Positions 27,930 through 55,488 of a stretch of 64,000 nucleotides of DNA are shown here, piece after piece. A program made the translations under genes and the position numbers. Each line of letters begins with the position of its first letter. The first letter of the stretch is position 1. The DNA comes from a virus (Duplodnaviria; Heunggongvirae; Uroviricota; Caudoviricetes): IMG/VR virus record IMGVR_UViG_3300045051_000909, positions 130,267-194,266 of that record. One strand, written 5' to 3'. The notes beneath the pieces were generated by a model. It had not been told where the DNA came from. It did no database searches and saw nothing but the letters and a program-made list of their open reading frames with translations.

Positions 27930-28796
27930 ATGGCAACCCCTGAACGTAACAACAACTACCGACATGCGCGCATGAGCAGCGACGACCGCGTCCTCGAAGC
28001 CTATTATGCTGATGTGCGTACTAGCGACCTGCTATCTCCCGAACTGGAGAAGAACCTCTTCCGCTCTTACCGAACTTGTGGCAACTGCGGACACGTATAC
28101 CAATTCGGAGCCGCACAGAAGACATGCCCCAGCTGCAATGCTCCGCGCGACTTCAAAGCGCGTGATCGTCTCGTCGAGGGCGCTCTGCGCTTCGTGCTTA
28201 AGGTCGCGAAGGACTACGCCAGGATGGTCAAAGGCGTTAACTACGACAGTGAGCTGCTCAAAGCGCTCACTTCAGCAGGGAATGTCGGTCTGCTTATCGC
28301 GCTAGATCGTTTTGACTCATCTCGAGGTACGCGCTTTCTTACTTACGCTGCTTGGTGGATCCGTGAAGAGATCCTCAAGGAGCTCGACAACATGGGTGTC
28401 GTGCGCGTGCCCGTGTATCGCCTCAAGGCACTACGCGCAAAGCGCAAGCAGTGCGAGGTTGTCGAGCCGGACCCCGCCTTTGTTACGACTGAAGACCTGA
28501 CCGCTGTGGATCACAAGCGGCAGGATGAACAACTTGAACGGAATCTAGTGAACACCTACGGTACCGACCTGTTGCACGACGCTATGGTTGAGATGGGTTT
28601 CAGAGGTCGGGACAAGTACATCGTTCTGGCGTACTTCGGAGTTCGAGAAGATCCAAAGAACCTACGTCAGATCTCCAATCGTCTGAGTCTGTCCTCCGAG
28701 CGTGTCCGTCAAATCAAGAAGGATGCGCTTGAGCGCCTCAAGACGTACTTGGAAGACCGCCAGATCGAAACGGCGGATGACATCTTTACGGAGTAA
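27930..28796 (+). CDS. Sigma-70 family factor with Zn-ribbon insertion
   Basis: Region 2 GLLIALDRFDSSRGTRFLTYAAWWIREEI; region 4 LRQISNRLSLSSERVRQIKKDALERLK; inserted CGNC-x12-CPSC. Confidence 0.9.
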   Translation: MATPERNNNYRHARMSSDDRVLEAYYADVRTSDLLSPELEKNLFRSYRTCGNCGHVYQFGAAQKTCPSCNAPRDFKARDRLVEGALRFVLKVAKDYARMVKGVNYDSELLKALTSAGNVGLLIALDRFDSSRGTRFLTYAAWWIREEILKELDNMGVVRVPVYRLKALRAKRKQCEVVEPDPAFVTTEDLTAVDHKRQDEQLERNLVNTYGTDLLHDAMVEMGFRGRDKYIVLAYFGVREDPKNLRQISNRLSLSSERVRQIKKDALERLKTYLEDRQIETADDIFTE

Positions 28797-32017: not shown

Positions 32018-32526
32018 CAGCTTTCGTTCTCCGTGAAGGGAGGCATGGTGTCACTCCCAATAGGTCCATGATCGCTGCTCTTAAGACGGTTCTGCTGCGC
32101 TACCAGACCGGGGTTCTCACGATCTAGCTTCTCTTGTAGTGCCCGAGACGTGGCAATGATTCCTGCCGGACTCGCGAATTCACTGTTCTCGCTATCGAAG
32201 CCGTCCCGTCCGGGGGGCGGAACTTCGAGGGTTGCGCCCCGGTCCGCTCGTGCCCGGATGATCTCAGGGCTCGGCTCTGGCGGTAGTTCGGGAGGGGTGA
32301 CGATGAACGGGCCCTCAGTGCGCGACTGAGCCGGTGGCGGCGTAGGGGCGATTACGCTGGTAGGCGGAACCGGTAGGACGGGGGCTGCCGCATCCGGCAA
32401 GGGTACTCCTGTTACTTCTACCTCAAAAGGGTCCGTACGTACGACTACCTTGCTTGCGTCCAGGGTTGCCTCCAGGTACTTCCCGATGATATTGATCAAA
32501 TCCTGCTTTTCGAGCACGATCCTCAT
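32017..32526 (-). CDS. Pro-rich hypothetical protein
   Basis: Start MRIVLEK overlaps the helicase stop. Confidence 0.6.
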   Translation of the reverse strand: MRIVLEKQDLINIIGKYLEATLDASKVVVRTDPFEVEVTGVPLPDAAAPVLPVPPTSVIAPTPPPAQSRTEGPFIVTPPELPPEPSPEIIRARADRGATLEVPPPGRDGFDSENSEFASPAGIIATSRALQEKLDRENPGLVAQQNRLKSSDHGPIGSDTMPPFTENES

Positions 32527-34586
32527 TTGAGCATCTCCGCCTTTGCGATGGTCCGCCGCGCGCTCCGCTGGTAGATACACCCCGGGTCGAACAGTTCAAC
32601 CTTATTACGGAGGCATTCAAACCGCTTTTCACAGTGAATGCAAGCCAGCTTGTTAGTTAGGATTGAACTGATATCCCGCTTCTGCTCCAGGGCGGCGACC
32701 TTATACGTATCGATGGTTCCGCGTCCCAGCAGACGATAAACCGTAACCTTGTTCGTCTGCCCCGCCCGGTAATTTCGATCCAGAGACTGTAGGTACGTCC
32801 CCAGGGACCAGTCCAGGGTGTAGTAGATCGTGTAGGTAGCAGCATTGAGGGTGATGCCAATACCTGTTGCGATCTGACCTAGGTAAACCCTACAGTCGGC
32901 GTTCTCGTTGAAGCTCTTGATCCGAGTCTGCACGTTACCGCTGTTCGACCCATCGACGCGAACGAAGCCGACATTACGGGCTTTGAGACGTTCGGCGATC
33001 ATATCCATCTCGGCCTTGTAGACAGCCCAGATGATGACCTTGTGCTTAGGGTCCACGAGGATACCGTCGAGCAACTCCTCGAGGGCATCGAGTTTCGGAT
33101 TTTCCTTGAGGGTGTGTGCTTGCGTATCGGGGGGCTTAGGAGCAACAACGCAGCGGCTGGTGTAGGGCTTGACGTCCTCCGTTACGCAGCGCGCTAGGTG
33201 CGGGCACCCGTCGCACAATTTAGTGTTGCCAGTTTCCAGTACGAAGCCAGAAACTACCTGGCAGAGTTTATTGAGCAGAACTGCTGCGTTCTGTACCTCT
33301 ACAAATGAATCTGGTGTCTGGAACCATGTGCTCAGGTCTGCGCCCATAGCGGACACCAGCGTGTTGTAGAGGCGTGCCTGTTCCTTCGACAAGTCGAAGT
33401 GTTGGTCGATGATCTGTCGCTCTGGAAGATCGAGACACTCATCTTTGGTCTTCCGGATTGCGACACGCTGGATGCGTTCGTTGAGGATGTTCAGATTTTT
33501 ATAGCCCGTGACAATCCGCTTGTTGTAAGGCGAGCGGACCAAGAAAAGATCAGAGAACTTGAACCAATCTTCTGGGAAGATGGCCGGTGACAAGAACTTC
33601 ATCTGCGGGAACATATCCTGCGGGTTCCCCAAGCTCGGCGTGCCTGTGAGCAGGTAACGCCGAGGGGCCTTAGTAGACAGGGCCAGCATCGCTTTGGTTT
33701 GCTGAGAACTGATGTCCTTGATGCCGTGGCTCTCGTCAGCGACGATGATGTCGTAAGGAAGGTCGATAAGCCACTGAGGGGAGGCGGCGGCTTCTGCGGC
33801 AGTTTGCCGGTCAATCTCGGCAAACGTCGCCCCGTTCTTCCAGGCTTCTACATAAAACGCCTGGCGGTCAGGATCAGACACACGCCGGAGAGAGCGTACC
33901 AACGCCTTGAGACCGCTCTCCGAGATCGTCTTGCCTGCTTTCTGTGCTGCCTGGATAAGGTTGAGTGACGCGCGATGCAGACGTGGAAGTGCCATGTTGC
34001 GCGCAGTACCATAGCTGGCAACGAGGACATCATACTTAGCGTATTCACGCATGATTTTGCGCTTACGCTTAGGGTCTCCGTCCAAGGCTACCGCGCGTAG
34101 TTCAGGTCCATGCACCTGCATTTCCCCAAGCCAGTTACGGACAGTGACAGGGGGTCCGAAGACCAGCATGCGCGTTTTCGGCAGCGCCCGCTTCAGATCG
34201 ATCACTACCTTGGTCTTGGCTGTTCCCATTTCCCAGAACAGCCCTAGCCGGGGATAGTGATAAAGCCAGCTGAGACCTTCGATCTGGTGGTCGAAGGGCT
34301 TCGTGACGAATGTGAATCCTTCAGGTAGGATGCGCTTCTCAATCCGCTGTGGGATACTCTCCAGATAGCGCAGATGCTCTTGAGCTTGCGGTGAGTATAC
34401 GAGATGCGGGACAACGTGCTTCAAGTCAGCGGCAACGATCAATCCGAATGGCGGATAGGCAGGGAACAGCCACCGGCGCCGCTCGGGAACCAGTGTACCG
34501 CCGTATACTCGCGCGAAGATCGGGTGGTCGTTGGGCGACAGGAAGACGGGACTTCCGTTAATGACTTCCAGATCCAACTGACTCAT
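32523..34586 (-). CDS. SNF2-family (SF2) helicase/ATPase
   Basis: DHQIEG, EMGTAKT, IVADESH, LTGTP, GIGITLNAA, QSLDRNYRAGQ. Confidence 0.88.
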   Translation of the reverse strand: MSQLDLEVINGSPVFLSPNDHPIFARVYGGTLVPERRRWLFPAYPPFGLIVAADLKHVVPHLVYSPQAQEHLRYLESIPQRIEKRILPEGFTFVTKPFDHQIEGLSWLYHYPRLGLFWEMGTAKTKVVIDLKRALPKTRMLVFGPPVTVRNWLGEMQVHGPELRAVALDGDPKRKRKIMREYAKYDVLVASYGTARNMALPRLHRASLNLIQAAQKAGKTISESGLKALVRSLRRVSDPDRQAFYVEAWKNGATFAEIDRQTAAEAAASPQWLIDLPYDIIVADESHGIKDISSQQTKAMLALSTKAPRRYLLTGTPSLGNPQDMFPQMKFLSPAIFPEDWFKFSDLFLVRSPYNKRIVTGYKNLNILNERIQRVAIRKTKDECLDLPERQIIDQHFDLSKEQARLYNTLVSAMGADLSTWFQTPDSFVEVQNAAVLLNKLCQVVSGFVLETGNTKLCDGCPHLARCVTEDVKPYTSRCVVAPKPPDTQAHTLKENPKLDALEELLDGILVDPKHKVIIWAVYKAEMDMIAERLKARNVGFVRVDGSNSGNVQTRIKSFNENADCRVYLGQIATGIGITLNAATYTIYYTLDWSLGTYLQSLDRNYRAGQTNKVTVYRLLGRGTIDTYKVAALEQKRDISSILTNKLACIHCEKRFECLRNKVELFDPGCIYQRSARRTIAKAEMLK

Positions 34587-34672: not shown

Positions 34673-36460
34673 ATGAGCGCCCCTGGTGATTCGTCTTTCG
34701 GTGACATTTCGGTCACAGATTCTCTGTCTTCGTTTGATCGCGCAGCCTCGCACCCGAACCCGGCTTTCGATTTTCTTACCGGCTTCGTCCCGCGTAAGCT
34801 GAAGGACCTTTTCAAGTGGTGCGAGTACCTCTTCTACAACTCGGCGCATACATACGCTGCGTTGAGGAAGTTCGGCGAGCTCGTGATCACGGATATCGAG
34901 ATTCAGACGTCGAACGAGGCCTTGAAGCGCAATTACAAGCGCCTCTTCGACAAGGTTCTCAAGGTCAAGATGAAGCTCCTCATGGGGTCCCTGGACAAGA
35001 ACGTCTACGGGAACCACTTCACTTCGATCTACAAGCCCTTCATCCGGTACCTGAAGTGCCCGAAGTGCGAGAACCTGACCAATATCAATATGGTCGACTA
35101 TCAGTTCGAGCTGAAGAAGCTCCAGTTCCGGTATCGCTGCAAGCGCTGCCACACGGATGTGAACGGCAAGGTAGTGGATCGAAAGGTCCTCGCCGCCGAC
35201 AAGATCCACATCATCCGCTGGGACCCGAAGCAGATGGACATCGACCACAACCCGATTACCGGGCAGTCGGTCTACTACTACACGATCCCCCAGGACATCA
35301 AAGACAAGGTGAAGCTGGGGGCTAAGCATCTGATCAACTCGATGCCTTACGAGTTTCTCGAGAACATCCGGGACAACAAGCTCTTCCGATTTGAGAAGGA
35401 CGCGATCTTCCACGTCAAGGTCCCAGGGCCCGCCGGTATTGATCCTCAGTGGGGCTACCCGCCGCTGGCGACCACGATGAAGCTGTACCTCTACACGATG
35501 GTGCTCCGTAAGGCGAACGAAGCTATCGCTCTAGAGCACATCGTGCCTATGCGCATTCTGCACCCCGCCCAACACGGAGCGCAGGACTTCGCACAGCAAA
35601 TCTCGCTGGGTCGCTGGCAGGAGGAGATGAAGTACAACATTCGCCGTTGGCGGCGAGACCCGCTTCACGTCATGTTTGCCCCGGTGCCTGTCGGGGTCGC
35701 GAACATGGGTGGTGACGGGCGAGCGATGCTTACGCTGGCAGAAGTCCAGGAGGCCGAGAAGGGCATCATGGCCGCGCACGGCGTGCCTGAGGAATTTCTC
35801 TATGGCGGTCTGACCAAGGCGGGTATGGAGGGCACGCTACGCCTGATCGAGAACCAGCTTCAGGGCCATGCCGACGATATGAATGACCTGCTCCAGTGGT
35901 ACATCGACCAGGTCTCTAAGTTCCTTGGTTGGGAGCGTGTCAATGCCAAGCTCACTCCACTCAAGATGGTGGATGATACGGAGACCAAGGCCTTGGTTGT
36001 TCAATTGGCCACAGGCCAAGTTGGCGGCCAGGCGACCGTTTCGATGACCACCATGATGGAGCGCCTGGGCCTGGACCCCGAGGAAGAGCGGGACAAGCGC
36101 CTCCAGTTCGCGCTGGACGAAGCCAAGCTTCAGATGAAGATCCAGCAAGAAGTTCAGAAGCTCCAGAACACGCTGTCGCAGCAGGTCCAAGCACAACTCC
36201 AAGGCGCGCAAGGGCTCAATTACGACCAGCAAGCGGTCATCGGACAGGCCGATCAGATGGTGCAACAGATGATGAGCCTGGACGAGAACACGAAGAAGTC
36301 ACAACTGCACTCTTTGCAAGTCGAAGACTACGTGATGTACTCCGTGGTCGTGCAGCGACTCGAGGAAATGCAGAACGCCCAGCGTATGCAACTCCAGCAG
36401 GCAGTGAAGGCGCAGGGCGGTGCCCCGGATCAGAGCGGTATGCCGCCGCAGGGAGTGTAA
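34673..36460 (+). CDS. Probable portal protein
   Basis: 595 aa late-strand gene; portal-like IFHVK...WGYP and helical stem pattern; Zn ribbon CPKC...CKRC; Q-rich C-terminal coil. Inferred, with no definitive motif. Confidence 0.55.
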   Translation: MSAPGDSSFGDISVTDSLSSFDRAASHPNPAFDFLTGFVPRKLKDLFKWCEYLFYNSAHTYAALRKFGELVITDIEIQTSNEALKRNYKRLFDKVLKVKMKLLMGSLDKNVYGNHFTSIYKPFIRYLKCPKCENLTNINMVDYQFELKKLQFRYRCKRCHTDVNGKVVDRKVLAADKIHIIRWDPKQMDIDHNPITGQSVYYYTIPQDIKDKVKLGAKHLINSMPYEFLENIRDNKLFRFEKDAIFHVKVPGPAGIDPQWGYPPLATTMKLYLYTMVLRKANEAIALEHIVPMRILHPAQHGAQDFAQQISLGRWQEEMKYNIRRWRRDPLHVMFAPVPVGVANMGGDGRAMLTLAEVQEAEKGIMAAHGVPEEFLYGGLTKAGMEGTLRLIENQLQGHADDMNDLLQWYIDQVSKFLGWERVNAKLTPLKMVDDTETKALVVQLATGQVGGQATVSMTTMMERLGLDPEEERDKRLQFALDEAKLQMKIQQEVQKLQNTLSQQVQAQLQGAQGLNYDQQAVIGQADQMVQQMMSLDENTKKSQLHSLQVEDYVMYSVVVQRLEEMQNAQRMQLQQAVKAQGGAPDQSGMPPQGV

Positions 36461-36463
36461 GCA

Positions 36464-36997
36464 ATGCCGAATGAAAAAGGCGACGGCCTCGACTTCGCGT
36501 CGACGATGAGCCGCGCGTTCACGCCCCCAGAACCGGGCGGCGCGAACGGGAAGGACTTGCCCGACGGATTCCCCTTTAGCGCCCCTGGCGAGACATACCG
36601 AATGGTGGATACAGCCAAGGATCCACAGAAGATCCCTGGAGCCACAGAGTTCGATTATGTCCCACATTTCAAAGGGTTTATCGTCTACCGTCCCTGGATG
36701 ACCTGTGATCGCTGTCGCCAGGCAATTGCTCAGGGCGAGGTAGTTCTTCCTGAGGACGACGGTGACCTAGAATGCCCGCACACCCAGGTGAAGCAGTTTC
36801 TGGAGGTACGGCAGCAGGTGCTTGAGGGGAAGGCGATGTGCGACCCCCCACAGCAGGTTGTCTTGAAGGACGGTACCATTGTGATGGCAATGCACTGGTA
36901 TACCTTCAAGCCCAACCACAAGCGCATGCGTGCGGCGCGTAAGATCGCAATGGCTCAGGGTGCTCCGCCGGACGGGATGCCAGAATCCGATCTGTAA
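36464..36997 (+). CDS. Hypothetical protein
   Basis: Follows the portal gene; CDRC...CPH. Confidence 0.6.
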   Translation: MPNEKGDGLDFASTMSRAFTPPEPGGANGKDLPDGFPFSAPGETYRMVDTAKDPQKIPGATEFDYVPHFKGFIVYRPWMTCDRCRQAIAQGEVVLPEDDGDLECPHTQVKQFLEVRQQVLEGKAMCDPPQQVVLKDGTIVMAMHWYTFKPNHKRMRAARKIAMAQGAPPDGMPESDL

Positions 36998-37000
36998 GCC

Positions 37001-37039
37001 AAAAAAGCGGGTCAGGGAGACGGAATCTCCCTGGCCCGC
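37001..37039 (-). terminator. Intrinsic terminator between convergent genes
   Basis: GCGGGTCAGGGAGA-loop-TCTCCCTGGCCCGC stem preceded by A6 (U6 on the minus strand). Confidence 0.7.
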
Positions 37040-37103
37040 ATCGACGTTACTTCTAGACTCCGAAGAGCGCTTTGGCGAGCAGGTGAAGGTAGCGGATGGC
37101 CAC

Positions 37104-37949
37104 CTATCCCTGCTTCGTGCTACCGGTGGCCGGCTGTGCCGATGCCACTTCGGTCCCGATGTGTGCGCCTTCGGCGTCCTTGCCGAAGTAGGTCGTCATC
37201 TCTTGCTGGAGGTTCGACGACTCGACGTTGGGCTGGTGTGCACGAACGAGCTCACCGACCGATGCGGTGAGCGGCGTTCCACGCCGCTGCTTGTTGTGCT
37301 TCTGCTTGTGCAGGGCGTTCTTCGACTGGGCGTGCTGCTGGACGTTCTGCTGGGCGTGCTGCTGGACGTTCTGCTGGGCGTGCTGCTGGACGTTCTGCTG
37401 GGCGTGCCGCTTGGCCTGGTGCGCCTTGCGGCAATTGCGGCAGCGGGTCCACTTCATGTGGTTCCCGCGTTCTCCGACGTTCTTGGCCACGTCACCTGCC
37501 GTGACGATGATGGTCCCCAAGCAGTTGGGGCCCTTGTCCTTGCAGGTGTTCATGTAGACGCGCGTCGTCGGATCGAGCTCACGCGCCCCCACCTTCGCCG
37601 CGATCATGCCGACCTGCTGCTCCCAGTTCGGCATGTACTCGCGGTACCCCGCTCGCGCCTCCGCCACACAGGCGCAGAGGATCGGACGGAGGTGAATCCA
37701 CCCCAACTTCGCAGCCTGCTTGAACGATGCATCATTCTCCTTACCGCAGAAGAAGCAACGCCCCTGTTTCACGCAGGCGTCCCGGACCACCGTGGCCATC
37801 CTCGACATCTTGTCGCCGCTGACCCCGAGTCGGGCTGCCATCTCCGATTCGCGGCCATCGACAACACCAACGACGGCTAGCTTGAGGTCCGGAACGGGCG
37901 CCAGGGTGGCGAGCGGAATCGCCCCGGCGCCCTTTTGTTTCGTTGCCAT
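37104..37949 (-). CDS. Cys-rich hypothetical protein with HAQQNVQQ repeats
   Basis: Start MATKQKG; CFFC, CAC, C-x6-C and CRNC zinc motifs. Confidence 0.65.
   Translation of the reverse strand: MATKQKGAGAIPLATLAPVPDLKLAVVGVVDGRESEMAARLGVSGDKMSRMATVVRDACVKQGRCFFCGKENDASFKQAAKLGWIHLRPILCACVAEARAGYREYMPNWEQQVGMIAAKVGARELDPTTRVYMNTCKDKGPNCLGTIIVTAGDVAKNVGERGNHMKWTRCRNCRKAHQAKRHAQQNVQQHAQQNVQQHAQQNVQQHAQSKNALHKQKHNKQRRGTPLTASVGELVRAHQPNVESSNLQQEMTTYFGKDAEGAHIGTEVASAQPATGSTKQG
37326..37407. repeat. 24-bp perfect tandem repeat, ~3.4 copies
   Basis: CTGGGCGTGCTGCTGGACGTTCTG at 37326, 37350 and 37374, plus a partial copy. Confidence 0.9.
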
Positions 37950-38035: not shown

Positions 38036-41000
38036 ATGAATCTGACCCCAGTTTTGACCGATGCCCAGACCCGGCGCTCCGAGATTCGCAAGAAGGCGGT
38101 GGAGGGCCTTGTCCAAGCCTTCCCGTTGAAGGTGCGCGAACACACTATCGAGCTGAAGGACGTCAAGGTACACGAGCGGGACTACGGCCCGAATGAGCAG
38201 AAGCAGGCCCTGCTCGAAGGCAGCTCCCTCCATGAGCCAGTGAAGGGCACACTGACGTTGCGGGGACCGGATGGGCATGTCCTGGAGACCGTGAAGAACT
38301 TCACTCTCCTACACCTCCCATACTTCACTGAGCGCCACACGTTCATCGTTGACGGCAATGAGTATCAGGTCGCTAACCAGATTCGCATGAAGCCGGGTGT
38401 CTACACCCGCCGTCGGGCAAATGGAGAACTCGAGGCGGCGTTCAACGTCGTAAAGATCCCCAACTTCAAACTGTCGCTGGAGCCGAAGCGGGGTCACCCA
38501 CTGCTCGAGATCGGCACTACGACAGTGCCGCTCTACCCGCTGCTCCGGAAGCTGGGTGTCCCACATGACGACATCGCGAAGCACTGGGGGTCTGAGGTCG
38601 CGAACACCAACGCAGCCGCATTCAAAGGTCACGAAGACAAGGCCGTAGACAAGTTCTACGGAAAGCTGCTGCACCCCTCTAAGCAGACGGCTACGACCTC
38701 CGAGATGCGGGTTGACGCGATTCAGCGCGAGTTTGATCGCTCGATCATGGACGGCGATGTCAACGAACTTACGCTGGGGGCCCAGCACAACAAGGTTTCG
38801 TCCAAGGCCCTATTGGATGCCTCGAAGAAGCTGCTCGATATCTACAAGTCTGGCGCGGATGTGGACGACCGGGATTCGTTGATCTACAAGACCTTCCACT
38901 CGGTCGATGACTTCATCAAGGAGCGTTTGGGCCTTGATTCGCGCGCAATCGCGGCGAAGGTCAAGGGGCGAGCCGCCTCCAAGACAACGATCCGGGAGCT
39001 GATGCCTGCGGCGCCTTTCTCGAGCGGCTTGCGCGCGTTCCTGACAGGCTCACAGCTGTCCTCCATCCCCACCCAGATCAACCCAATGGAGATGGTAGAC
39101 CACGCTGTGAAGGTTACGAGCTTGGGCGAAGGCGGCATTTCGTCCGAGCGCGCCATTCCGATGGAGGCGCGCCAACTACACCCCACGCACTTCGGCATCC
39201 TGGACCCGGTACGTACCCCCGAGTCCTTCAAGGCAGGCGTGGACATCCGTGCGGCTCTTTTTGCCCATCGCGACGAGAAGGGCAACCTCTACACGCTCGC
39301 TAAGAACGTCAAGACAGGTAAGACCGAGCATCTCTCTGCAAAGCAGGTGTTCGACGCCAAGGTAGCTTTCCCGAATCAGAAGCTGTCGGGCATTGTGGAC
39401 GCTATCTACAAGGGCCAGGTGCAGCACCTCCAGGCGTCCGAGGTACAGTACCAACTCACTAGCCCCTCGCAGATGCTCTCGCCGACGTCGAACCTGATTC
39501 CGATGATTGAGAGCATTCAGGGCAACCGTGCCACGATGGGCAGCAAGATGCAGACGCAGGCCCTTCCGCTTGTGGAGCGCGAGGCTCCGCTGGTTCAGGT
39601 GGGTACAGGTGTCGGGGAGCACTCGAGCTTCGAGAAAGAGTTTGGTAAGTTGGTTGTTCCGACGGCACCCGTCTCTGGCAAGATCGTCAAGATCGACTCG
39701 CAGTACATCTATCTCGACCCCTCGGGCAAGAAGCACGCAGAAGAGGCAAAGCTCGCTGGCGTTGCTAAGCGCCAGAAGACGGTCGAAGGCGTTACTTTCA
39801 AGATCGAGCTCGAGCCCGGGGATGAGCGCACGGGCACAAATCCCGAGACGGGCGAGAAGTGGTCGAAGACGATGTCCGTCTGCTACGGCTACATCCCCAA
39901 GACGACGGGTGATGATGATGAGTGTGTTGACGTCTACCTAAAGGAAGACGGCGTCTTTGAGAAGGTCTTCGTCGTCCACCAGGTGGACAAGGAAGGGAAC
40001 TACGACGAAGACAAGTGCATGATCGGGTTCGCTGACAAGGCTGAGGCCAAGGCGGCATACGAAAAGCACGGCCCCGAATGGGGCTTCGGCAACATGGACG
40101 AGTTTTCCTGGGATGAGTTCAAGGACGACTACCTGGAGGAGCGTAAGAAGGAAGCCGCCGACAAAGATCTGATCAAGATCCCTTATGAGACGAACTTCCC
40201 GTTCGCTTCCAAGACGTACCTGACGCACACGCTTAATGTGAAGGCCGGGGATCACGTCAAGGAAGATCAGCATCTCGCCGAGTCGAACTTCACGCGCGAC
40301 GGCGCGCTTGCCCTCGGCAAGAACATGAAGGTCGCCTATATGGCGTACTACGGACTCAACTCTAACGACGCCGTTGTGATCTCTGAAGGTGCCGCAAAGA
40401 AGTTGACCTCCGAGCACATGTACAAGGAGCTCCTCGAGACAGAGCCCGACATGACCGTTGGTCGTGAAATCCATCGACAGTACTATGGCAGCCACTACTC
40501 GATGGATCAGTACGCGAAGCTAAGCGAGGGGGGTGTGGTCAAGCGGGGTCAGAAGGTCCTGCCCCACGACCCTCTGATCGTGGGCGTGCAGAAGTCCAAG
40601 CCCACCGCCACTGATGTACTACTCGGCAATCTCAAGAAGTCCTTGGCACGGCCTTTCAAGGAGGTTGTGCGTACCTGGGATCATGACTTCGAGGGCGAGG
40701 TGATCGACGTCTTCCAGTCCAACAAGCGCATCGTCGTGACCGTACGTACACGCGAGCCCATGCGTGTCGGCGACAAGCTCGCCGGCCGCTACGGCAACAA
40801 GGGCGTCGTATCCCGCATCGTCCCCAGTGAGCAGATGGTGCAGGATGCTAAGGGTAAGCCTATCGACATCCTCTATACCTCGGCCGGCGTCATCAGCCGT
40901 ATTAATCCGGCACAGATCATCGAAACCGCAGTAGCGAAGGTGGCTGAGAAGACGGGCAAGCCTATCGTTATCCCTAGCTTCTCGGGTCGCAACAATGTCG

Positions 41001-42808
41001 AGTGGGCGAAGGGCTTGCTCAAGGAACACGACATCCAGGACAAGGAAACCGTCTTCGACCCGGTTTCGGGCAAGAAGATCGAAGGTGTCCTGGTCGGCCC
41101 GCAGTACACGTTGCGACTTTTTAAGACCACGGAGTCGAACTTCGCTGCGCGCGGAACCGGTAGTTACGACGTAAACCAGCAGCCGACAAAGGGTGGTGAC
41201 GAAGGGGCGAAGGGCATCGGCGCCATGGAGTTCAACGCCCTGGTGGCGCACAACGCGCGCAACGTGCTCAAGGAAACGGCGACGGTTAAGAGTCAACGCA
41301 ACGACGAGTTTTGGCGAGCCATTCAACTGGGGCTGCCGCTTCCTGCCGCCCGCGCACCCTTCGCTTTTGACAAGTTCGTGGCGATGATGCACGCGGCGGG
41401 CATCCGTGTGGATAAGCGAGGCAACAAGCTGCACCTGCTCCCCCTGACAGACGCCGATGTGAAGCGCCTGTCGTCTGGTGCCATTGAGAACGAGAAACTA
41501 GTGCGCGCCAAGGATCTCGCTCCAGAGCGCGGAGGATTCTTCGATCCCGCACTGACCGGCGGCACTACCGGCACTCGCTGGACCCATGTCGACCTAGCGG
41601 AACCCGTGCTCAACCCTGTCTTTGTCGAGCCTGCTCGGCGCCTGCTTGGTCTGAGCAACAAGGATCTCGACAAGATGCATTTTGAACTGGGTGGCGCCGC
41701 GCTAAAGCGGAAGCTCAACGCTATCGATGTCGAGGAGCGCCTGAAGGAACTGCGTACCCAGATCAAGACCGCCCGTAATTCGGCACTCGATGACCTGGTC
41801 AAGCAGATTAAGTATCTAGAGGGACTCAAGAAGGCCGGTATGCGCGCCGGGGACGCCTACGTATTGTCCAAGCTGCCGGTGATCCCACCCATCACGCGCC
41901 CGGTGCTCCCCGGACGTGGCGGCCAAGAGCTCGTCGTGGGTGATTCGAATTACCTGTATCAGAATGCGTTCATGCACAACACCACGTTGCGTCGCCAGAA
42001 CGCCACGCCGGTGCTACCGCCGGAGGAACACGCACAGCTGCGGGAGAATCTATTCCGGGCCGTTGGCGCTGTCATCGGCACGCATGAGACAGACAACCCA
42101 AAGCTCGAGAAGCGGAACGTGAAGGGCTTCCTGGAGCACCTCACAGGCAAGACTACCCCGAAGAGCTCGTTCTTCCAGAAGAAGATCATGAAGCGCCAGC
42201 AGGATTTGTCTGGTCGCGGTACCATTGCTCCTGACGGGTCCCTGGGCATGGATGAGGTCGGCATCCCGGAAGAGATGCTCTGGAACATGTTCGGCAAGTT
42301 CGTCATCGCACGGCTTGTGCGGCGCGGCTTCGGGGCTGTTCAGGCGAAGGAGATGTACGAGAACAAGCACCCTGCCGCGCGAGACGCCCTGATGGCCGAG
42401 GTGAAGGAGCGCCCGGTCATGGTGAACCGTGCGCCTACGCTTCACCGCTACGGCATCGTCGGCGCGTACGCAGTGCCCGTCGCGGGTAAGACGATCACGG
42501 TCAACCCGTTCATTGAAAAGGGTATGAACGCGGACTACGACGGGGACACTTTCCAAGTCCACACTCCTGTACTACCGCAGGCGGTCGAGGATGTTAAGCG
42601 AATGACGTTGTCGCACTTGATCTTTGGGGACAAGAACCGCAACGCCCTTATGGTCGCGCCGGACCACGAAGCTGTGCTCGGCGTTCACATCGCCACGGCG
42701 AAGAAGTCGGACGGCAAGGTCCACAAGTTCAAGACTAAGGCTGACGCCATGGCTGCCTATAAAAAGGGTGAGCTCAACATCAACGACTTGGTGGAGATCA
42801 GCAAATGA
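38036..42808 (+). CDS. Multi-subunit RNA polymerase: beta fused to N-terminal (catalytic) half of beta', with inserted pyrophosphatase domain
   Basis: Beta motifs HPTHFGILDPVRTPE, NRATMGSKMQTQA, GDKLAGRYGNKGVVS, GAMEFNAL; beta' motifs LPVIPPITRP, DLSGRGTI, NRAPTLHR, NADYDGD. Confidence 0.93.
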   Translation: MNLTPVLTDAQTRRSEIRKKAVEGLVQAFPLKVREHTIELKDVKVHERDYGPNEQKQALLEGSSLHEPVKGTLTLRGPDGHVLETVKNFTLLHLPYFTERHTFIVDGNEYQVANQIRMKPGVYTRRRANGELEAAFNVVKIPNFKLSLEPKRGHPLLEIGTTTVPLYPLLRKLGVPHDDIAKHWGSEVANTNAAAFKGHEDKAVDKFYGKLLHPSKQTATTSEMRVDAIQREFDRSIMDGDVNELTLGAQHNKVSSKALLDASKKLLDIYKSGADVDDRDSLIYKTFHSVDDFIKERLGLDSRAIAAKVKGRAASKTTIRELMPAAPFSSGLRAFLTGSQLSSIPTQINPMEMVDHAVKVTSLGEGGISSERAIPMEARQLHPTHFGILDPVRTPESFKAGVDIRAALFAHRDEKGNLYTLAKNVKTGKTEHLSAKQVFDAKVAFPNQKLSGIVDAIYKGQVQHLQASEVQYQLTSPSQMLSPTSNLIPMIESIQGNRATMGSKMQTQALPLVEREAPLVQVGTGVGEHSSFEKEFGKLVVPTAPVSGKIVKIDSQYIYLDPSGKKHAEEAKLAGVAKRQKTVEGVTFKIELEPGDERTGTNPETGEKWSKTMSVCYGYIPKTTGDDDECVDVYLKEDGVFEKVFVVHQVDKEGNYDEDKCMIGFADKAEAKAAYEKHGPEWGFGNMDEFSWDEFKDDYLEERKKEAADKDLIKIPYETNFPFASKTYLTHTLNVKAGDHVKEDQHLAESNFTRDGALALGKNMKVAYMAYYGLNSNDAVVISEGAAKKLTSEHMYKELLETEPDMTVGREIHRQYYGSHYSMDQYAKLSEGGVVKRGQKVLPHDPLIVGVQKSKPTATDVLLGNLKKSLARPFKEVVRTWDHDFEGEVIDVFQSNKRIVVTVRTREPMRVGDKLAGRYGNKGVVSRIVPSEQMVQDAKGKPIDILYTSAGVISRINPAQIIETAVAKVAEKTGKPIVIPSFSGRNNVEWAKGLLKEHDIQDKETVFDPVSGKKIEGVLVGPQYTLRLFKTTESNFAARGTGSYDVNQQPTKGGDEGAKGIGAMEFNALVAHNARNVLKETATVKSQRNDEFWRAIQLGLPLPAARAPFAFDKFVAMMHAAGIRVDKRGNKLHLLPLTDADVKRLSSGAIENEKLVRAKDLAPERGGFFDPALTGGTTGTRWTHVDLAEPVLNPVFVEPARRLLGLSNKDLDKMHFELGGAALKRKLNAIDVEERLKELRTQIKTARNSALDDLVKQIKYLEGLKKAGMRAGDAYVLSKLPVIPPITRPVLPGRGGQELVVGDSNYLYQNAFMHNTTLRRQNATPVLPPEEHAQLRENLFRAVGAVIGTHETDNPKLEKRNVKGFLEHLTGKTTPKSSFFQKKIMKRQQDLSGRGTIAPDGSLGMDEVGIPEEMLWNMFGKFVIARLVRRGFGAVQAKEMYENKHPAARDALMAEVKERPVMVNRAPTLHRYGIVGAYAVPVAGKTITVNPFIEKGMNADYDGDTFQVHTPVLPQAVEDVKRMTLSHLIFGDKNRNALMVAPDHEAVLGVHIATAKKSDGKVHKFKTKADAMAAYKKGELNINDLVEISK

Positions 42809-43045: not shown

Positions 43046-43447
43046 ATGAACCCGTATCTCGCGACAATTCTCGATCACCTTCTGACCGTTGTGGTTTCGG
43101 TCGTCGTCCCGATTCTCGCCACCGTTCTGATTCGCTACCTCCAGAAGAAGACGAACGTGCAGCTCGACGCCGCAAAGGAAGCCGAACTCCACAATGTGCT
43201 CATGCACGCCATTGGTTATGCTGAGGAGTGGGCGCGTAAGAAGGTCACGACCACTGGCGAGAAGCCAGCGGGCGCCGTAAAGCTCGAGGAGGCGCTTAAG
43301 TGGGCGGAGGAGGAGGCGGCTCGTCGCGGCTTGGACAAGATGGCCAAGGAGCGGCTTGAGGCTCTGTTGCTCGCCAAGCTTGGTCTGACGCGTGACCAGG
43401 CGGAAGCCCCGACGCCAGCACCCGCACCTGCTCCTGAGGTCAAGTAA
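43046..43447 (+). CDS. Membrane protein, LL-H-family holin-like
   Basis: AAGGAG RBS; single N-terminal TM helix followed by AIGYAEE...G..KLEEA. Confidence 0.5.
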   Translation: MNPYLATILDHLLTVVVSVVVPILATVLIRYLQKKTNVQLDAAKEAELHNVLMHAIGYAEEWARKKVTTTGEKPAGAVKLEEALKWAEEEAARRGLDKMAKERLEALLLAKLGLTRDQAEAPTPAPAPAPEVK

Positions 43448-46331: not shown

Positions 46332-47567
46332 ATGGGTCTGTTCAAGCGTGCAGCGGTCCGTGGCGTGGCCCACGAGCTTATTCGTCAGGGCGTGGTTGCG
46401 TTCCCGTCGAAGGAGGCAGCCGACGCTGCCGCTGACGAGGTCGCTGACAAGATGCCCGAGCAGGCAGGCCCCCAGGGTCCGGGCGCCGGTCCTGAGGTGT
46501 CTGGTCCGCAGGGCCACTCTCCTGAGGAGGTCGCGGCGGTTGCTCAGAAGCTGATCGAGATCGCCCAGGCGCTGATGGCACAGGCTGGCGCTGGCGGTCC
46601 GCCCGCTGCGGCAGCGGCCAAGATGGGCGCCGAGACGCTGTACAAGAGCGCCTCCGAAGTTGATGCCGATACCTACGGCGAGGTTGCGTCGAAGGTCGCG
46701 GTCGAGCTGATGGAGAAGGCCTCCGCCGAGGCGAAGCAGGCCGGCGCCCTCATCGAGGGTGGCGACAAGGGCAACAAGCCCGCGCAGGCTGCGAAGACTC
46801 ACGAGATCGCCGCGCTGGACGAGAAGCAGCGTCCGCAGGGCACCTACCAGGTGCCGACTGGTGACAGCTCGTTGAAGACCATGCAGGGCCACATCGGTTC
46901 GCTCGAGAAGCACGACAAGCAGCCGAAGGAGAGCCCGTCCGGCGGCAACTCGCTGACCGAGGACCCGGGCAAGAAGGCGTCCGAGGCTCTCTACAGCGAG
47001 GTTCGCAAGATCGCCGGTGCTCTGATCAAGGGTGGCGACAAGGGCAATACCTTCGACCAGGCCGCGAAGACCACCGAGGTCGGCGCGCTGGACAAGAAGC
47101 AGCGCCCCGAGGAGTACGCCCATGTTGGCCAGGGCAACGCCAACTTCTCCGAGCCGCAGGCCGCTCGTGTTGGTCTTGAGAAGAAGCCGGATGTTACCCC
47201 GAGCCGCACCGTCTCGGGCAGCAACTCGGTGATTGAGGCGTCGAAGGCCGCCAGCTACTCGGCGGAGTTCCTGGCCCTCTTCAACAAGTGCGCGGCCGAG
47301 GTTGTTCCGCAGCTTCCCACGAACCTGAGTGATGAGCAGAAGGTCGCGGCCGTGCGCCACATGATGGGCATGGACGAGGGTGAGCGGGCCGAGTACATCA
47401 CCTCGGTGAAGAAGGCGTCGGAGAACAAGCAGGGCGGCGACGCTGCCGAGGCTATGGCCGCGCTGAAGGGCAACGAGGAGACGAAGGAGCCGAAGAAGGA
47501 AGAGAAGGGCGAGAAGAAGAGCGCTCTCCTCGAGGAGATCAACAAGATCGCCACGGCTCAGAAGTAA
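46332..47567 (+). CDS. Abundant internal head/scaffold-like protein with 91-aa internal duplication
   Basis: AGGAG RBS; strong codon bias; AGALI.GGDKGN...AAKT.E..ALD.KQRP at 46740 and 47013. Confidence 0.6.
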   Translation: MGLFKRAAVRGVAHELIRQGVVAFPSKEAADAAADEVADKMPEQAGPQGPGAGPEVSGPQGHSPEEVAAVAQKLIEIAQALMAQAGAGGPPAAAAAKMGAETLYKSASEVDADTYGEVASKVAVELMEKASAEAKQAGALIEGGDKGNKPAQAAKTHEIAALDEKQRPQGTYQVPTGDSSLKTMQGHIGSLEKHDKQPKESPSGGNSLTEDPGKKASEALYSEVRKIAGALIKGGDKGNTFDQAAKTTEVGALDKKQRPEEYAHVGQGNANFSEPQAARVGLEKKPDVTPSRTVSGSNSVIEASKAASYSAEFLALFNKCAAEVVPQLPTNLSDEQKVAAVRHMMGMDEGERAEYITSVKKASENKQGGDAAEAMAALKGNEETKEPKKEEKGEKKSALLEEINKIATAQK

Positions 47568-53037: not shown

Positions 53038-53483
53038 TGAATCCCGCTTACGCCGATCTTTGGGCAGCGCTGAAGATGGGCGCCAGCCTCGAGAAGTGGG
53101 CCTCCGCTGAGGACCGCGAGGTTGCAACGCGCAGCCAGGTCGAGAACGCGAAGCTGTGCGACAGCGTCATCGAGCGCGCGCTCAAGGTAGCCTCTGAGCA
53201 ATTCCCCCAGCGCACTTTACTCGGTAAAGAAGCCGGGGTTGCCGCGATGACTCAGCTAGTTCTGTCGCTGCGCGACACGCATGCAGCCACAGGCGAGAAG
53301 CTAGCCGCAGCACCTGAGGCCGTTGCTGATGGCCTCATCAAGCTCGCCACTGCTGTTTTCACGGATCTTGTCATTTCGGAACAGCTGACGAAGCTCTCCG
53401 GCGATGAAGCGCAGAAGGCGCGCATGACGCAACTGCTCGGCCGTGAATACATGGTCGAGGCGATTAGGAGCCTCCTTGCGTAA
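53037..53483 (+). CDS. Virion-type protein (K-x-A rich)
   Basis: AAGGAG RBS; EKWAS, KVAS, EKLAA. Confidence 0.6.
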   Translation: MNPAYADLWAALKMGASLEKWASAEDREVATRSQVENAKLCDSVIERALKVASEQFPQRTLLGKEAGVAAMTQLVLSLRDTHAATGEKLAAAPEAVADGLIKLATAVFTDLVISEQLTKLSGDEAQKARMTQLLGREYMVEAIRSLLA

Positions 53484-55488
53484 GATCATCGAGCTCGACG
53501 AGACTCTCGGTGGAGAGTCAGTGGTGCGGCCGGTACTCCTCTGGGGTGCCAACGGTCGTCCTCTGCGCGAGCTCGACAACGTCAAGACGGCGAGCGAAGC
53601 CGGCGACTTCATCAAGAGCGTAGAGCCCAAGCCGGGAATGACCATTGTTCTCGTTTTGGCGCTCGGTGCTTACGAGTTCTACGATCTCAACCGCAACGGG
53701 GACGGGTTCAACGAGTCGCCGTACCGGATTGGATTCAAGCCGACGTGCGGCCACTCCGAGTGTGAGCGGGGTATGGTGGACGGCTGGATCACCCAGGAAG
53801 ACACCATCCCGTTCCACTACAAGTCCTTTGAGACGATGGGCAAGAATTACATGCACCACGTCAACAAGGACCCCAAGAAGGCTGTAGGGGACATTCTCAA
53901 GTCATTCTGGAATCCGACGATGCACCGCATTGAGTTGCTCGTCGGAATCGACAACACACTCGCACCTGAGATTGTTCAGCGCATCGCTGATGGCGATTAC
54001 CCCGCTGTTTCGATGGGCTGCCGTATCAAGTACGACGTCTGCACTGAGTGCGGACACCGTGCACCTACGCGCAATCACTACTGTGAGCACCTAAAGTACG
54101 GCCTGCGCCAAGTTGGCAAGAGGGGCCTGCGGTACGGCGCCCTCAACCCCTCTCCGCGTTGGTTCGATCTCTCCTGGGTCATCAAGCCCGCCGACCAGAC
54201 CGGCTTCATGATGAAGAAGGTCGCGCACGAGGCTGCCTACGAGATTCGGGCTTCCGCTGACCTCGGGGAGTACTTGGAGGCAGTGGACGAGAAGCGTGCA
54301 GCGATTCAAAAGGTCTCCGACATCGACAAGGTTGTGCGCGGCCTGCCTGTAGATCACAAGACGTCGCCCCTGTCTGCGGGGGAAGCGCAGCTGGTTCGCA
54401 ACTACCACCAGTCGATTCAGCCGGCTCTACGCAACATGCCGGTGATGGACGACAAAACCATCGGCTCTCTGGCGCAACATCCGGTTGCCGAAGTTCTGTC
54501 CACGCTATCGGCAGCAGGAGTCGTCCTCACCACTCCGGAGTTCGTCAAGCTCATCCTCGCCAAGATGGCCCCGGGGGTTAGGGTCGACGAGACCACGCTC
54601 GATGCGATGGTCGCTCTTCAGGGCCAAATTTTTGACTTTTTCGCGAAGAATCCCCAGGCGCTTGATCAGTTGATGCAGACGCACCTGTTCGACATCAACG
54701 CGAAAAACGTCAAGCCCGAGATTGCAGGTAAGGCGGAGAAGTACCTCGAGAAGCGGTCGACGATGATGGACTACCTCGGCCGCGCCCTCGTTCCGCCGAC
54801 CCTCCGCTCCGAGGAGCCGCCGTTTACCGATACTTTCCATGTCCGGGATCCTGCAACTGGCCACAGCTACGCGACGACGCGTGGAGCCGCGACAGCAGCT
54901 CACGATGAGATTGCGCGCCGGCAGCTTGTGAAGATGCTTGGCGGCGGTGCCATGCTTGCGGGGGCGTACAAGCTCCTGGCCCCGGGTCTTCCGGCGATGC
55001 TCCGCCCCGTCGCAGCAGGAACCGCCGGCCTTCTAGGCTACAAGTACCTACGCCCGAACTGGGGTCCCCAGTACATGACTGACGAGGGCGTTGCGATCCC
55101 AGCGTCTACTGAGCTTAGCCAGGAGCGCACCGCGAACGAGTTCGCAAGTGTCGCACTACCCGTGCTTGGTTCAGCCGCATTGGTGGCGGGACTCGGTCAT
55201 GATTACGAGTCGCGTCTGAATCGCGGGGAATTTGTTAGCGACCCGAACGCCCCGATCCATACGCGTCTATTCAATAAGCTCGAGCAGCACGCACATGAAC
55301 ACCCGGCATTGACTATGTTGGGGTCGCTGAGCGCTTATGGCTTGGGGGCCAATGCGCTGGGGAAGTTGGCAGAGTTCTTGGGAGACGTCCTAGAACCGGC
55401 TACAGACTCAGTCCACTTGCCCGATGTGGACGTCGATAGGGCAGCCGAAAAAATAGGTACACTCCTGGTTCATGAATATGACCGATGA
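53476..55488 (+). CDS. Prohead (capsid maturation) protease with Zn-finger insertion
   Basis: AGGAG plus TTG start; NRNGDGF, YMHH, AVSMGC...CTECG...CEH, FDLSWVIKPAD resemble the HK97-type prohead protease signature. Confidence 0.7.
   Translation: MRKIIELDETLGGESVVRPVLLWGANGRPLRELDNVKTASEAGDFIKSVEPKPGMTIVLVLALGAYEFYDLNRNGDGFNESPYRIGFKPTCGHSECERGMVDGWITQEDTIPFHYKSFETMGKNYMHHVNKDPKKAVGDILKSFWNPTMHRIELLVGIDNTLAPEIVQRIADGDYPAVSMGCRIKYDVCTECGHRAPTRNHYCEHLKYGLRQVGKRGLRYGALNPSPRWFDLSWVIKPADQTGFMMKKVAHEAAYEIRASADLGEYLEAVDEKRAAIQKVSDIDKVVRGLPVDHKTSPLSAGEAQLVRNYHQSIQPALRNMPVMDDKTIGSLAQHPVAEVLSTLSAAGVVLTTPEFVKLILAKMAPGVRVDETTLDAMVALQGQIFDFFAKNPQALDQLMQTHLFDINAKNVKPEIAGKAEKYLEKRSTMMDYLGRALVPPTLRSEEPPFTDTFHVRDPATGHSYATTRGAATAAHDEIARRQLVKMLGGGAMLAGAYKLLAPGLPAMLRPVAAGTAGLLGYKYLRPNWGPQYMTDEGVAIPASTELSQERTANEFASVALPVLGSAALVAGLGHDYESRLNRGEFVSDPNAPIHTRLFNKLEQHAHEHPALTMLGSLSAYGLGANALGKLAEFLGDVLEPATDSVHLPDVDVDRAAEKIGTLLVHEYDR

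Follow-up and report, generated by a model that had tools for sequence, protein, structure and literature searches.

We analyzed a window of 64,000 nt (64 kb; the whole stretch of DNA studied here), which forms the final part (positions 130,267 to 194,266) of the 194,266-bp IMG/VR virus record IMGVR_UViG_3300045051_000909, a tailed-phage genome with a CheckV completeness of 100%. The window contains a gene for a large RNA polymerase (RNAP) fusion protein of 1590 amino acids (aa), and a domain of the phage InPase family (PF18823), related to family-I inorganic pyrophosphatases (PPases), is inserted into a loop of its beta part. We call this loop the cargo loop. The features of the locus and the modules identified in the cargo loops of homologous polymerases are compiled in Table 1.

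Table 1 Features of the polymerase locus and modules of the cargo loop. Positions are those of the window; P numbers denote homologous polymerases.
Feature	Position	Strand	Basis or details
Whole insert, 150 aa (aa 563–712)	39722–40171	+	Flank-anchored comparison with insert-less homologues
InPase (PF18823) match	39761–40126	+	E = 2.9e-33; folded core in AlphaFold model ~39770–40165
Core signature Y53-G54 ... D63-x-E65-x-x-D68 (YGYIPKTTGDDDECVDVY)	39884–39937	+	Family profile versus PDB PPases
Second acidic/lysine motif D93-E94-D95-K96	40004–40015	+	D93, E94 and K96 invariant in 29-sequence family alignment and in embedded copies
N-side bracket K-H-A-E-E, insert start	39731–39745	+	Residues 1–9 of AlphaFold model of low confidence (pLDDT <50)
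C-side bracket K-E-A-A-D, insert end	40148–40162	+	Predicted at end of last helix
Fused RNAP beta and N-terminal half of beta'	38036–42808	+	Pfam domains; 1590 aa from ATG 38036, stop 42808
beta' C-terminal half, separate gene, 599 aa	43757–45556	+	Pfam Rpb1_5, E = 3.6e-17; PHROG RNAP families
Sigma-70-like factor, 288-aa open reading frame	27930–28796	+	PF04542 Sigma70_r2, E = 9e-11, at genome 158439–158651 (window 28173–28385)
Portal protein, upstream of polymerase gene	34673–36460	+	31% identity, E = 3e-101, to Arash portal gp204
Ala/Glu-rich protein, 411 aa, same module as polymerase	46332–47567	+	Open reading frame; K-x-A-[AE]-[ED] at residue 27
681-aa protein with head-maturation-protease-like region (aa 123–219)	53443–55488	+	phrog_18299, E = 5.4e-11
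Query-type InPase (type 1)	Cargo loop		Y-G-x-I-P-K-T...D-D-G-E-T-V-D, D-E-D-K
Second InPase subtype	Cargo loop		D-Y-G-F-x-P-G...D-G-E-E-L-D, D-E-H-K
Third, divergent InPase subtype	Cargo loop		D-Y-G-H-L-P-G-Y...D-G-D-S-L-D
GNAT acetyltransferase cassette	Cargo loop		Pfam PF13673/PF13508/PF00583
NTase-like module	Cargo loop of P0022		G-S-x-G-S...D-L-D, nucleotidyltransferase-like motif
P-loop module	Cargo loop of P0057 and P0114		P-loop motif
At least three unknown modules	Cargo loop of P0049, P0053, P0005–P0007, P0041; P0069, P0088; P0105

The polymerase reading frame opens at a TTG at position 37943, and the ATG at 38036 is the start that agrees with the N-termini of homologues. An AGGAG motif precedes this ATG at the unusually long distance of 16 nt. 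Following the upstream open reading frame (ORF) and 90 nt before the ATG, a G+C-rich inverted repeat (GGCGCC...GGCGCC, then TTTTGTTT; 37898–37942, plus strand) looks like an intrinsic terminator. Pfam assigned the domains Rpb2_3, Rpb2_6, a weak Rpb2_7, Rpb1_1 and Rpb1_2 to the 1590-aa protein, and the NADYDGD metal-A loop is present. Because Rpb2 and Rpb1 domains and this loop occur together, the protein represents beta fused to the N-terminal half of beta', while the C-terminal half of beta' is encoded by a separate gene downstream. Across the whole 194-kb genome, Rpb2_6 matched only the gene at 38036–42808, and the two gene products form the only multisubunit RNAP of this phage.

For the insert we used a residue numbering in which K1 corresponds to position 39728. 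When the fusion protein was aligned to Salmonella RpoB (in E. coli numbering), GTGV at aa 523–526 corresponded to GTGM 701–704 and VKAGDHV at aa 735 to VSLGEPV 771. The insert takes the place of the short turn N736–G746 of E. coli and Salmonella RpoB, between two strands of the sandwich-barrel hybrid motif (SBHM) that precedes the beta double-psi barrel. Since it tolerates from 8 to ~340 residues among homologues, this turn is presumably exposed at the surface. A sequence-only reading of this DNA had already placed an acidic insert in the beta sandwich-barrel hybrid region, which the RpoB alignment bears out; the extent given there, 39730–40165, lies within the insert and is slightly narrower than the one delineated here. 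The peptides quoted in it are all found in frame within the single 1590-aa ORF: FKIELEPG (39797–39820), YGYIPKT (39884–39904), DDDECVDVY (39911–39937), VFVVHQ (39965–39982) and YDEDKCMIGF (40001–40030).

In its composition the insert resembles the polymerase gene, with a GC content of 0.565 versus 0.587 and a GC content at third codon positions (GC3) of 0.769 versus 0.767. These matching values, together with the lack of meaningful flanking DNA repeats, rule out recently acquired foreign DNA. An intein and an ordinary lineage-specific beta domain, the alternatives weighed in the sequence-only reading, do not apply either, as the insert has no Hint or LAGLIDADG match in Pfam and is predicted to adopt a PPase fold.

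The InPase profile matched the segment 39728–40168 with 115 bits (cut-off 26.8; E = 2.9e-33), covering profile positions 9–132 of 135. The same match was obtained in a profile search of the 194-kb genome, which yielded exactly one InPase copy. The canonical PPase profile PF00719 stayed below its threshold (13.1 bits versus a cut-off of 23.5, E = 0.083) and covered 24 residues. AlphaFold modelled the insert with a pLDDT of 91.7 and a pTM of 0.85. Comparing this model with the PDB by Foldseek gave 39 matches with E ≤ 0.001, and all listed matches are inorganic pyrophosphatases. With VIA-align we obtained a Z score of 9.0 and an rmsd of 3.1 Å over 116 of 147 residues, and the top 50 entries are all family-I PPases, from bacteria, archaea and eukaryotes. 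The chains of the structural matches comprise 160–175 residues, compared with which the InPase insert is ~30 aa shorter. The InPase family has been described as lacking the beta-hairpin located between strands 1 and 2 of canonical PPases (PMC5512222).

The family profile aligns Y-G-x-I-x-x-T-x-x-x-D-G-D-x-V-D to the PPase signature in PDB sequences. We aligned the insert with 28 short family members obtained by an exhaustive HMMER search (29 sequences) and compared it with the copies embedded in polymerases. In the 29 family members and 40 embedded copies, E27, R34, Y53, G54, D63, E65 (D or E in the family), D68, Q85, D93, E94 and K96 are invariant or nearly so. The middle residue of D-x-D-x-x-D is Glu in all 40 type-1 polymerase-embedded copies, the query included. 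The counterparts in E. coli PPase are presumably E20, Y55, D65, D67, D70 and D102/K104, with D93-E94-D95-K96 probably corresponding to D102/K104, and R34 could take over from basic residues located on the hairpin that is reported missing from the InPase family. The PROSITE pattern for family-I PPases reads D-[SGDN]-D-[PE]-[LIVMF]-D-[LIVMGAC], from which the D-D-E-C-V-D-V of the insert departs with E at position 3 and C at position 4.

From these comparisons we conclude that the insert is a phage-type InPase with a trimmed family-I PPase barrel, which judging from its motifs is probably an active enzyme. The sequence-only reading had called it a family I soluble PPase, with Y-G-x-I-x-x-T...D-x-D-x-x-D-V and a downstream D-x-K as signature. 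In this, the family-I fold, as predicted by AlphaFold, Foldseek and VIA-align, the intact active-site motif and the Y-G...D-x-x-x-x-D frame have held up. The assignment to the canonical soluble enzyme has to be replaced by InPase; moreover, the downstream motif is D-E-D-K rather than a strict D-x-K, and the middle Asp is Glu.

This Glu at the equivalent of D67 and the hairpin residues reported as missing from the family might point to a non-catalytic structural or docking domain, for which a PPase fold would have been exapted as a lineage-specific insertion; bacterial RNAPs tolerate many non-catalytic insertions. However, the 40 embedded copies and the 29 diverse family members show no variation at the acidic, Lys, Tyr and Arg positions, and the same slot accepts further enzymes with preserved catalytic motifs, among them GNAT domains recognized by Pfam. 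We therefore regard a purely structural role as very improbable.

Homologues of the polymerase number in the hundreds in a large metagenomic protein database, encoded on contigs of up to ~197 kb. We compared the loops of the best 120 homologues and the query (121 sequences), anchored on the flanks. The loop is short in 54 of them (8–43 aa) and long in the other 67 (139–342 aa). InPase is by far the commonest cargo, present in ~55 of the 67 inserts, and falls into three subtypes. Other loops hold a GNAT acetyltransferase, a nucleotidyltransferase-like (NTase-like) or a P-loop module, or modules of at least three unknown kinds. Of the latter, one kind has the motif V-N-G-x-x-V-R-N...D-x-D-F, one a hydrolase-like G-H-S-R-G-A-D, and a third is unique to P0105; none of these three kinds matches Pfam. 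Pfam searches with the cassette classes C and D and with the NTase-like and P-loop modules gave no match. Modules are arranged singly, as tandem InPase, or as pairs of an unknown module and InPase, of InPase and P-loop, or of GNAT-like and InPase, with up to two further modules per loop. Inteins (PF14528 LAGLIDADG_3, PF14890) were found in the homologues P0007, P0031, P0036, P0043, P0044, P0094 and P0105, where they add length elsewhere than in the cargo loop, and in the Vibrio phages D181 and D148 the homologous gene is interrupted by a homing endonuclease.

We built a tree from the polymerase core alone, leaving out the loop. In this tree, query-type InPase characterizes one large clade, with scattered losses and replacements inside, and the third subtype characterizes a sister clade. 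In the two pairs P0064/P0059 and P0061/P0067, the cores are nearly identical and the presence of the GNAT cassette is the only difference. Compared with the query, the 39 other query-type polymerases show a mean identity of 62% in InPase versus 69% in the core, with invariant catalytic positions. Clades with 70–73% core identity have an InPase identity of 51–62%, and clades with 66–68% core identity one of 63–70%, which hints at incongruent InPase and core trees. Because the cassettes are scattered and InPase similarity does not track core similarity, we consider the loop a slot in which cassettes have been gained, lost and probably exchanged. The invariant catalytic positions, the near-core level of conservation and the host-like GC and GC3 indicate that the insert has been resident for long and is maintained by purifying selection, rather than being debris.

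The profile PF18823 had no match in the whole 180.8-kb genome of Salmonella phage Arash, in a 100%-complete relative of 170 kb with terminal repeats, or in four partial relatives with insert-less polymerases. Since Arash and the complete 170-kb relative lack InPase, the polymerase does not need it, and InPase is therefore accessory. This distribution bears on the proposal in the sequence-only reading that the polymerase carries its own enzyme for the inorganic pyrophosphate (PPi) released at each nucleotide addition. In the strict version of this idea, a dedicated PPase would be placed to catch PPi leaving the active site and would be needed for elongation and for the suppression of pyrophosphorolysis. 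The intact PPase fold and motifs and the predominance of InPase among the cargos would suit such a trap, and a benefit of PPi removal to early transcription had been suggested by Iyer et al. 2017 (PMC5512222). In contrast, the family usually resides in portal and polyvalent proteins without any polymerase, and InPase is missing from Arash and the complete relative. The sequence-only reading had itself named the presence or absence of the insert in homologous phage RNAPs as a criterion, and this proved to be variable. A loop that in close relatives holds GNAT, NTase-like, P-loop or unknown domains, or nothing, weakens the case for a dedicated coupling to nucleotide addition, and we consider the strict version unlikely.

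The wider family provides further context. The InPase domain was defined in phage polyvalent proteins, large multidomain proteins that the capsid carries and that are injected along with the DNA, and it also occurs in portal fusions (Iyer et al. 2017, PMC5512222). The authors proposed that it attacks nucleotide-like molecules or clears PPi in aid of early replication or transcription; they also described neighbourhoods containing NUDIX, GNAT and TmrB and considered nucleotide-like substrates (PMC5512222). A word-based search for stand-alone relatives of the insert gave one match, so that an exhaustive HMMER search was needed, which identified 9479 representative proteins, from solo forms of 137 aa to giants of ~5000 aa. 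The other domains in sampled InPase proteins include LPD1, PBECR1, ddrB-ParB, RadC, methyltransferase, thymidylate kinase, KTSC, DUF5661 and SNF2. Outside of polymerases, the insert has its closest relatives in multidomain proteins of phages (with LPD1, PBECR1, ddrB-ParB or KTSC, and the C-terminus of the Pa193 portal). As these relatives are multidomain phage and portal proteins, the family context agrees with the picture of Iyer et al. 2017. The sole sequence relative of the insert in the PDB is the C-terminus of the Pa193 portal gp19. It does not provide a solved InPase structure, because residues 94–528 were modelled and the C-terminus was not built (PMC11456595).

Looking at these neighbourhoods and at the behaviour of the slot, one could also think of an injected counter-defence or takeover effector. 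Its trimmed, more open site would act on a host alarmone, a signalling nucleotide or polyphosphate, with the polymerase as a mere vehicle. The GNAT, NTase-like and kinase-like modules co-occurring in the loop are typical of host-modifying polyvalent proteins, and the neighbourhoods containing NUDIX, GNAT and TmrB and the nucleotide-like substrates suggested by Iyer et al. (PMC5512222) point in the same direction. The conserved residues of InPase are, however, the metal- and PPi-binding ones of the canonical enzymes, and such an effector appears quite unlikely.

The closest cultured relatives of the polymerase are gp206 of Salmonella phage Arash and the proteins of the Vibrio phages D69, D181 and D148 (35–36% identity). 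Arash gp206 shares 36% identity over nearly the full length and has the same beta/beta'-N architecture. In mass spectrometry of Arash virions, gp206 was the most-detected protein with 3516 spectra, and the beta' protein gp216 and a sigma factor were found as well (PMC10585845). Because gp206 is the most abundant virion protein by this measure, the polymerase studied here is, by analogy, probably packaged in the virion too, in line with the virion-injected setting considered in the sequence-only reading. The portal gene located shortly upstream of the polymerase gene in both phages points to the same link with the virion. The sigma-70-like factor encoded in the window is probably the specificity subunit of the single phage RNAP, as is gp10 in Arash.

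The explanation that we favor, with a probability of roughly 0.6, is that of an accessory InPase cassette in a permissive surface loop of a virion polymerase, hydrolysing PPi or a small pyrophosphate molecule near transcription. The polymerase would be packed in the head, enter the cell together with the genome, as expected from the homology with Arash, and start transcription with the phage sigma factor. InPase in the beta loop would then hydrolyse PPi or a related small pyrophosphate compound beside the working polymerase and so favor early RNA synthesis, acting either tethered or after release. The loop would serve as a general cargo slot, and the polymerase as a polyvalent-like carrier that brings helper enzymes to the site and time of first transcription. 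InPase would be a dispensable advantage, for which some lineages would substitute other host-modifying or nucleotide-handling enzymes.

Several points weigh against this explanation. The host cytoplasm normally contains a PPase already, so that it is not evident what a local one would add. Packaging is extrapolated from another phage, whose homologue is 36% identical; the authors of that study detected 116 proteins and caution that abundant enzymes may be carried over (PMC10585845). The equivalent of the general-base Asp (E. coli D67) is Glu in the insert, and the InPase family reportedly lacks the hairpin on which canonical PPases have K29/E31/R43 (PMC5512222), so that substrate and rate may differ from those of true PPases. 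Our literature search yielded no biochemistry for any PF18823 member.

Whether the cassette would act tethered or released relates to a short motif, K-x-[A/S/G]-[A/E/S]-[E/D], which brackets the modules and also occurs between modules in several multi-module inserts. In these related, and hence non-independent, sequences the relaxed bracket is found at the start (first 10 aa) of 64 of the 67 inserts and at the end (last 14 aa) of an equal number, and 53 of the 54 short loops contain it as well, against a background of 5% of the 10-aa windows elsewhere in the same proteins. A strict form is present at 46/67 and 56/67 boundaries versus a background of 0.1%, and the motif persists across unrelated cargos. 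The motif recurs in the 411-aa Ala/Glu-rich protein encoded in the same module, as K-E-A-A-D at residue 27; K-x-A-[AE]-[ED] is conserved there in 7/7 orthologues and near residue 129 in 5/7. Such a pattern would suit a scaffold or an internal head protein that undergoes processing. No conserved bracket motif was found in orthologues of the portal, beta'-C, p896, p330, p220, p177 and the protease, so that among the neighbours compared only the 411-aa protein has one.

It is possible, but in our view doubtful, that the loop is a punctuated cassette array. A head-maturation protease would then cut K-x-A-[AE]-[ED] in the capsid, freeing the enzymes for injection and splitting beta at the loop. We infer a candidate for this protease in the 681-aa product. 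Genome-wide, K.A[AE][ED] occurs 17 times versus 5.1 expected, while its strict forms are not enriched, and the excess may reflect Ala/Glu-rich helices. This ambiguous enrichment speaks against cleavage, as does the AlphaFold prediction of the C-side motif at the end of a confident helix. If cleavage did take place, it would amount to a polyprotein strategy inside a cellular-type RNA polymerase and a new way to load small enzymes into capsids.

Portal and polymerase genes are separated by two small ORFs (36464–36997 and 36930–37880), in an order similar to the one in Arash. The two polymerase genes flank a small ORF (43046–43447, plus strand) that matches Holin_LLH (PF09682) and has an orthologue in only 1 of 13 related loci. 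An SNF2-family helicase gene (32523–34586, minus strand) adjoins the portal/RNAP module; a helicase is also found near the Arash RNAP genes, and an association of Swi2/Snf2 with RNAP was noted in PhiKZ-like jumbo phages (PMC7824862). The 962-aa metagenomic protein P0130 combines KTSC, an SNF2 helicase and a C-terminal InPase; at 18% identity, it is ruled out as an orthologue of the helicase in the window. Further downstream, a 615-aa protein (60708–62555, plus strand) matches the phage lipase family phrog_6102 with its C-terminal 180 aa (E = 1e-18).

The sequence-only reading knew of no characterized RNAP with such a fusion, and our literature search likewise found no multisubunit polymerase reported to contain InPase or any other exchangeable enzyme cassette; the InPase domain appeared only in the 2017 paper (PMC5512222). 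The polymerase joins two unrelated modules in one ORF, RNAP beta/beta'-N and InPase, as polyvalent proteins do. A Pfam scan of its 1590 aa gave no zincin metallopeptidase (MPTase) or LPD-type markers, domains that occur in other InPase proteins. The architecture extends the polyvalent-protein idea from the end-to-end fusions of the N4 type to an internal loop of a two-barrel polymerase. It also reveals a natural insertion-tolerant site in beta, at which from 8 to ~340 aa are accommodated and whole enzymes appear to be exchanged among related phages. The system offers a direct test bed for the old suggestion that local PPi removal matters in the first transcription round of an invading genome. 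With more than 9000 representative proteins the family is large, and this compact member of 15 kDa, whose partner is clear, would be a good entry point to its biochemistry.

Among known systems, the RNAP of Arash (gp206/gp216) is organized as here, with a beta/beta'-N fusion, a separate beta'-C and the portal gene just upstream, but it has the minimal loop GEDGKEH at the insertion site and InPase nowhere in the genome. The InPase domains of polyvalent, portal or MuF-type proteins (PMC5512222) belong to the same family, share the acidic residues and likewise occur in a late or virion context of phages; they are terminal or serial modules, whereas the one described here is nested in an RNAP beta loop. 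Family-I soluble PPases (E. coli Ppa, M. tuberculosis Rv3628; PF00719) share the barrel, the Y-G...D-x-[DE]-x-x-D signature and the downstream acidic/Lys motif. They are, however, only 13–19% identical to the insert and form free hexamers, in contrast to an embedded domain that is ~30 aa shorter and carries a Glu.

The virion RNA polymerases of N4-like phages are likewise delivered from the capsid with enzymatic passengers (ART, lysozyme, PBECR, MPTase and RNase modules; PMC5512222). Those are single-subunit, T7-like enzymes with passengers fused end to end and a metallopeptidase, whereas a two-barrel, cellular-type polymerase carries its passenger in an internal loop here, and no MPTase was found. 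The nearest precedent for a phosphohydrolase on a multisubunit RNAP is an HD phosphohydrolase fused to the C-terminal piece of beta in Bacillus jumbo phages of PhiKZ-like group 1 (Iyer et al. 2021, PMC7824862). It differs in its unrelated fold, its terminal position and the phage group, and no cassette variability was described for it. Finally, bacterial beta insertions such as E. coli beta-i4 and beta-i9 (BBM2/SBHM modules) are also large and located in surface loops of beta. Those insertions are non-enzymatic, beta-rich and fixed within lineages, whereas the cargo loop described here holds an enzyme fold that is present, absent or exchanged among close relatives.

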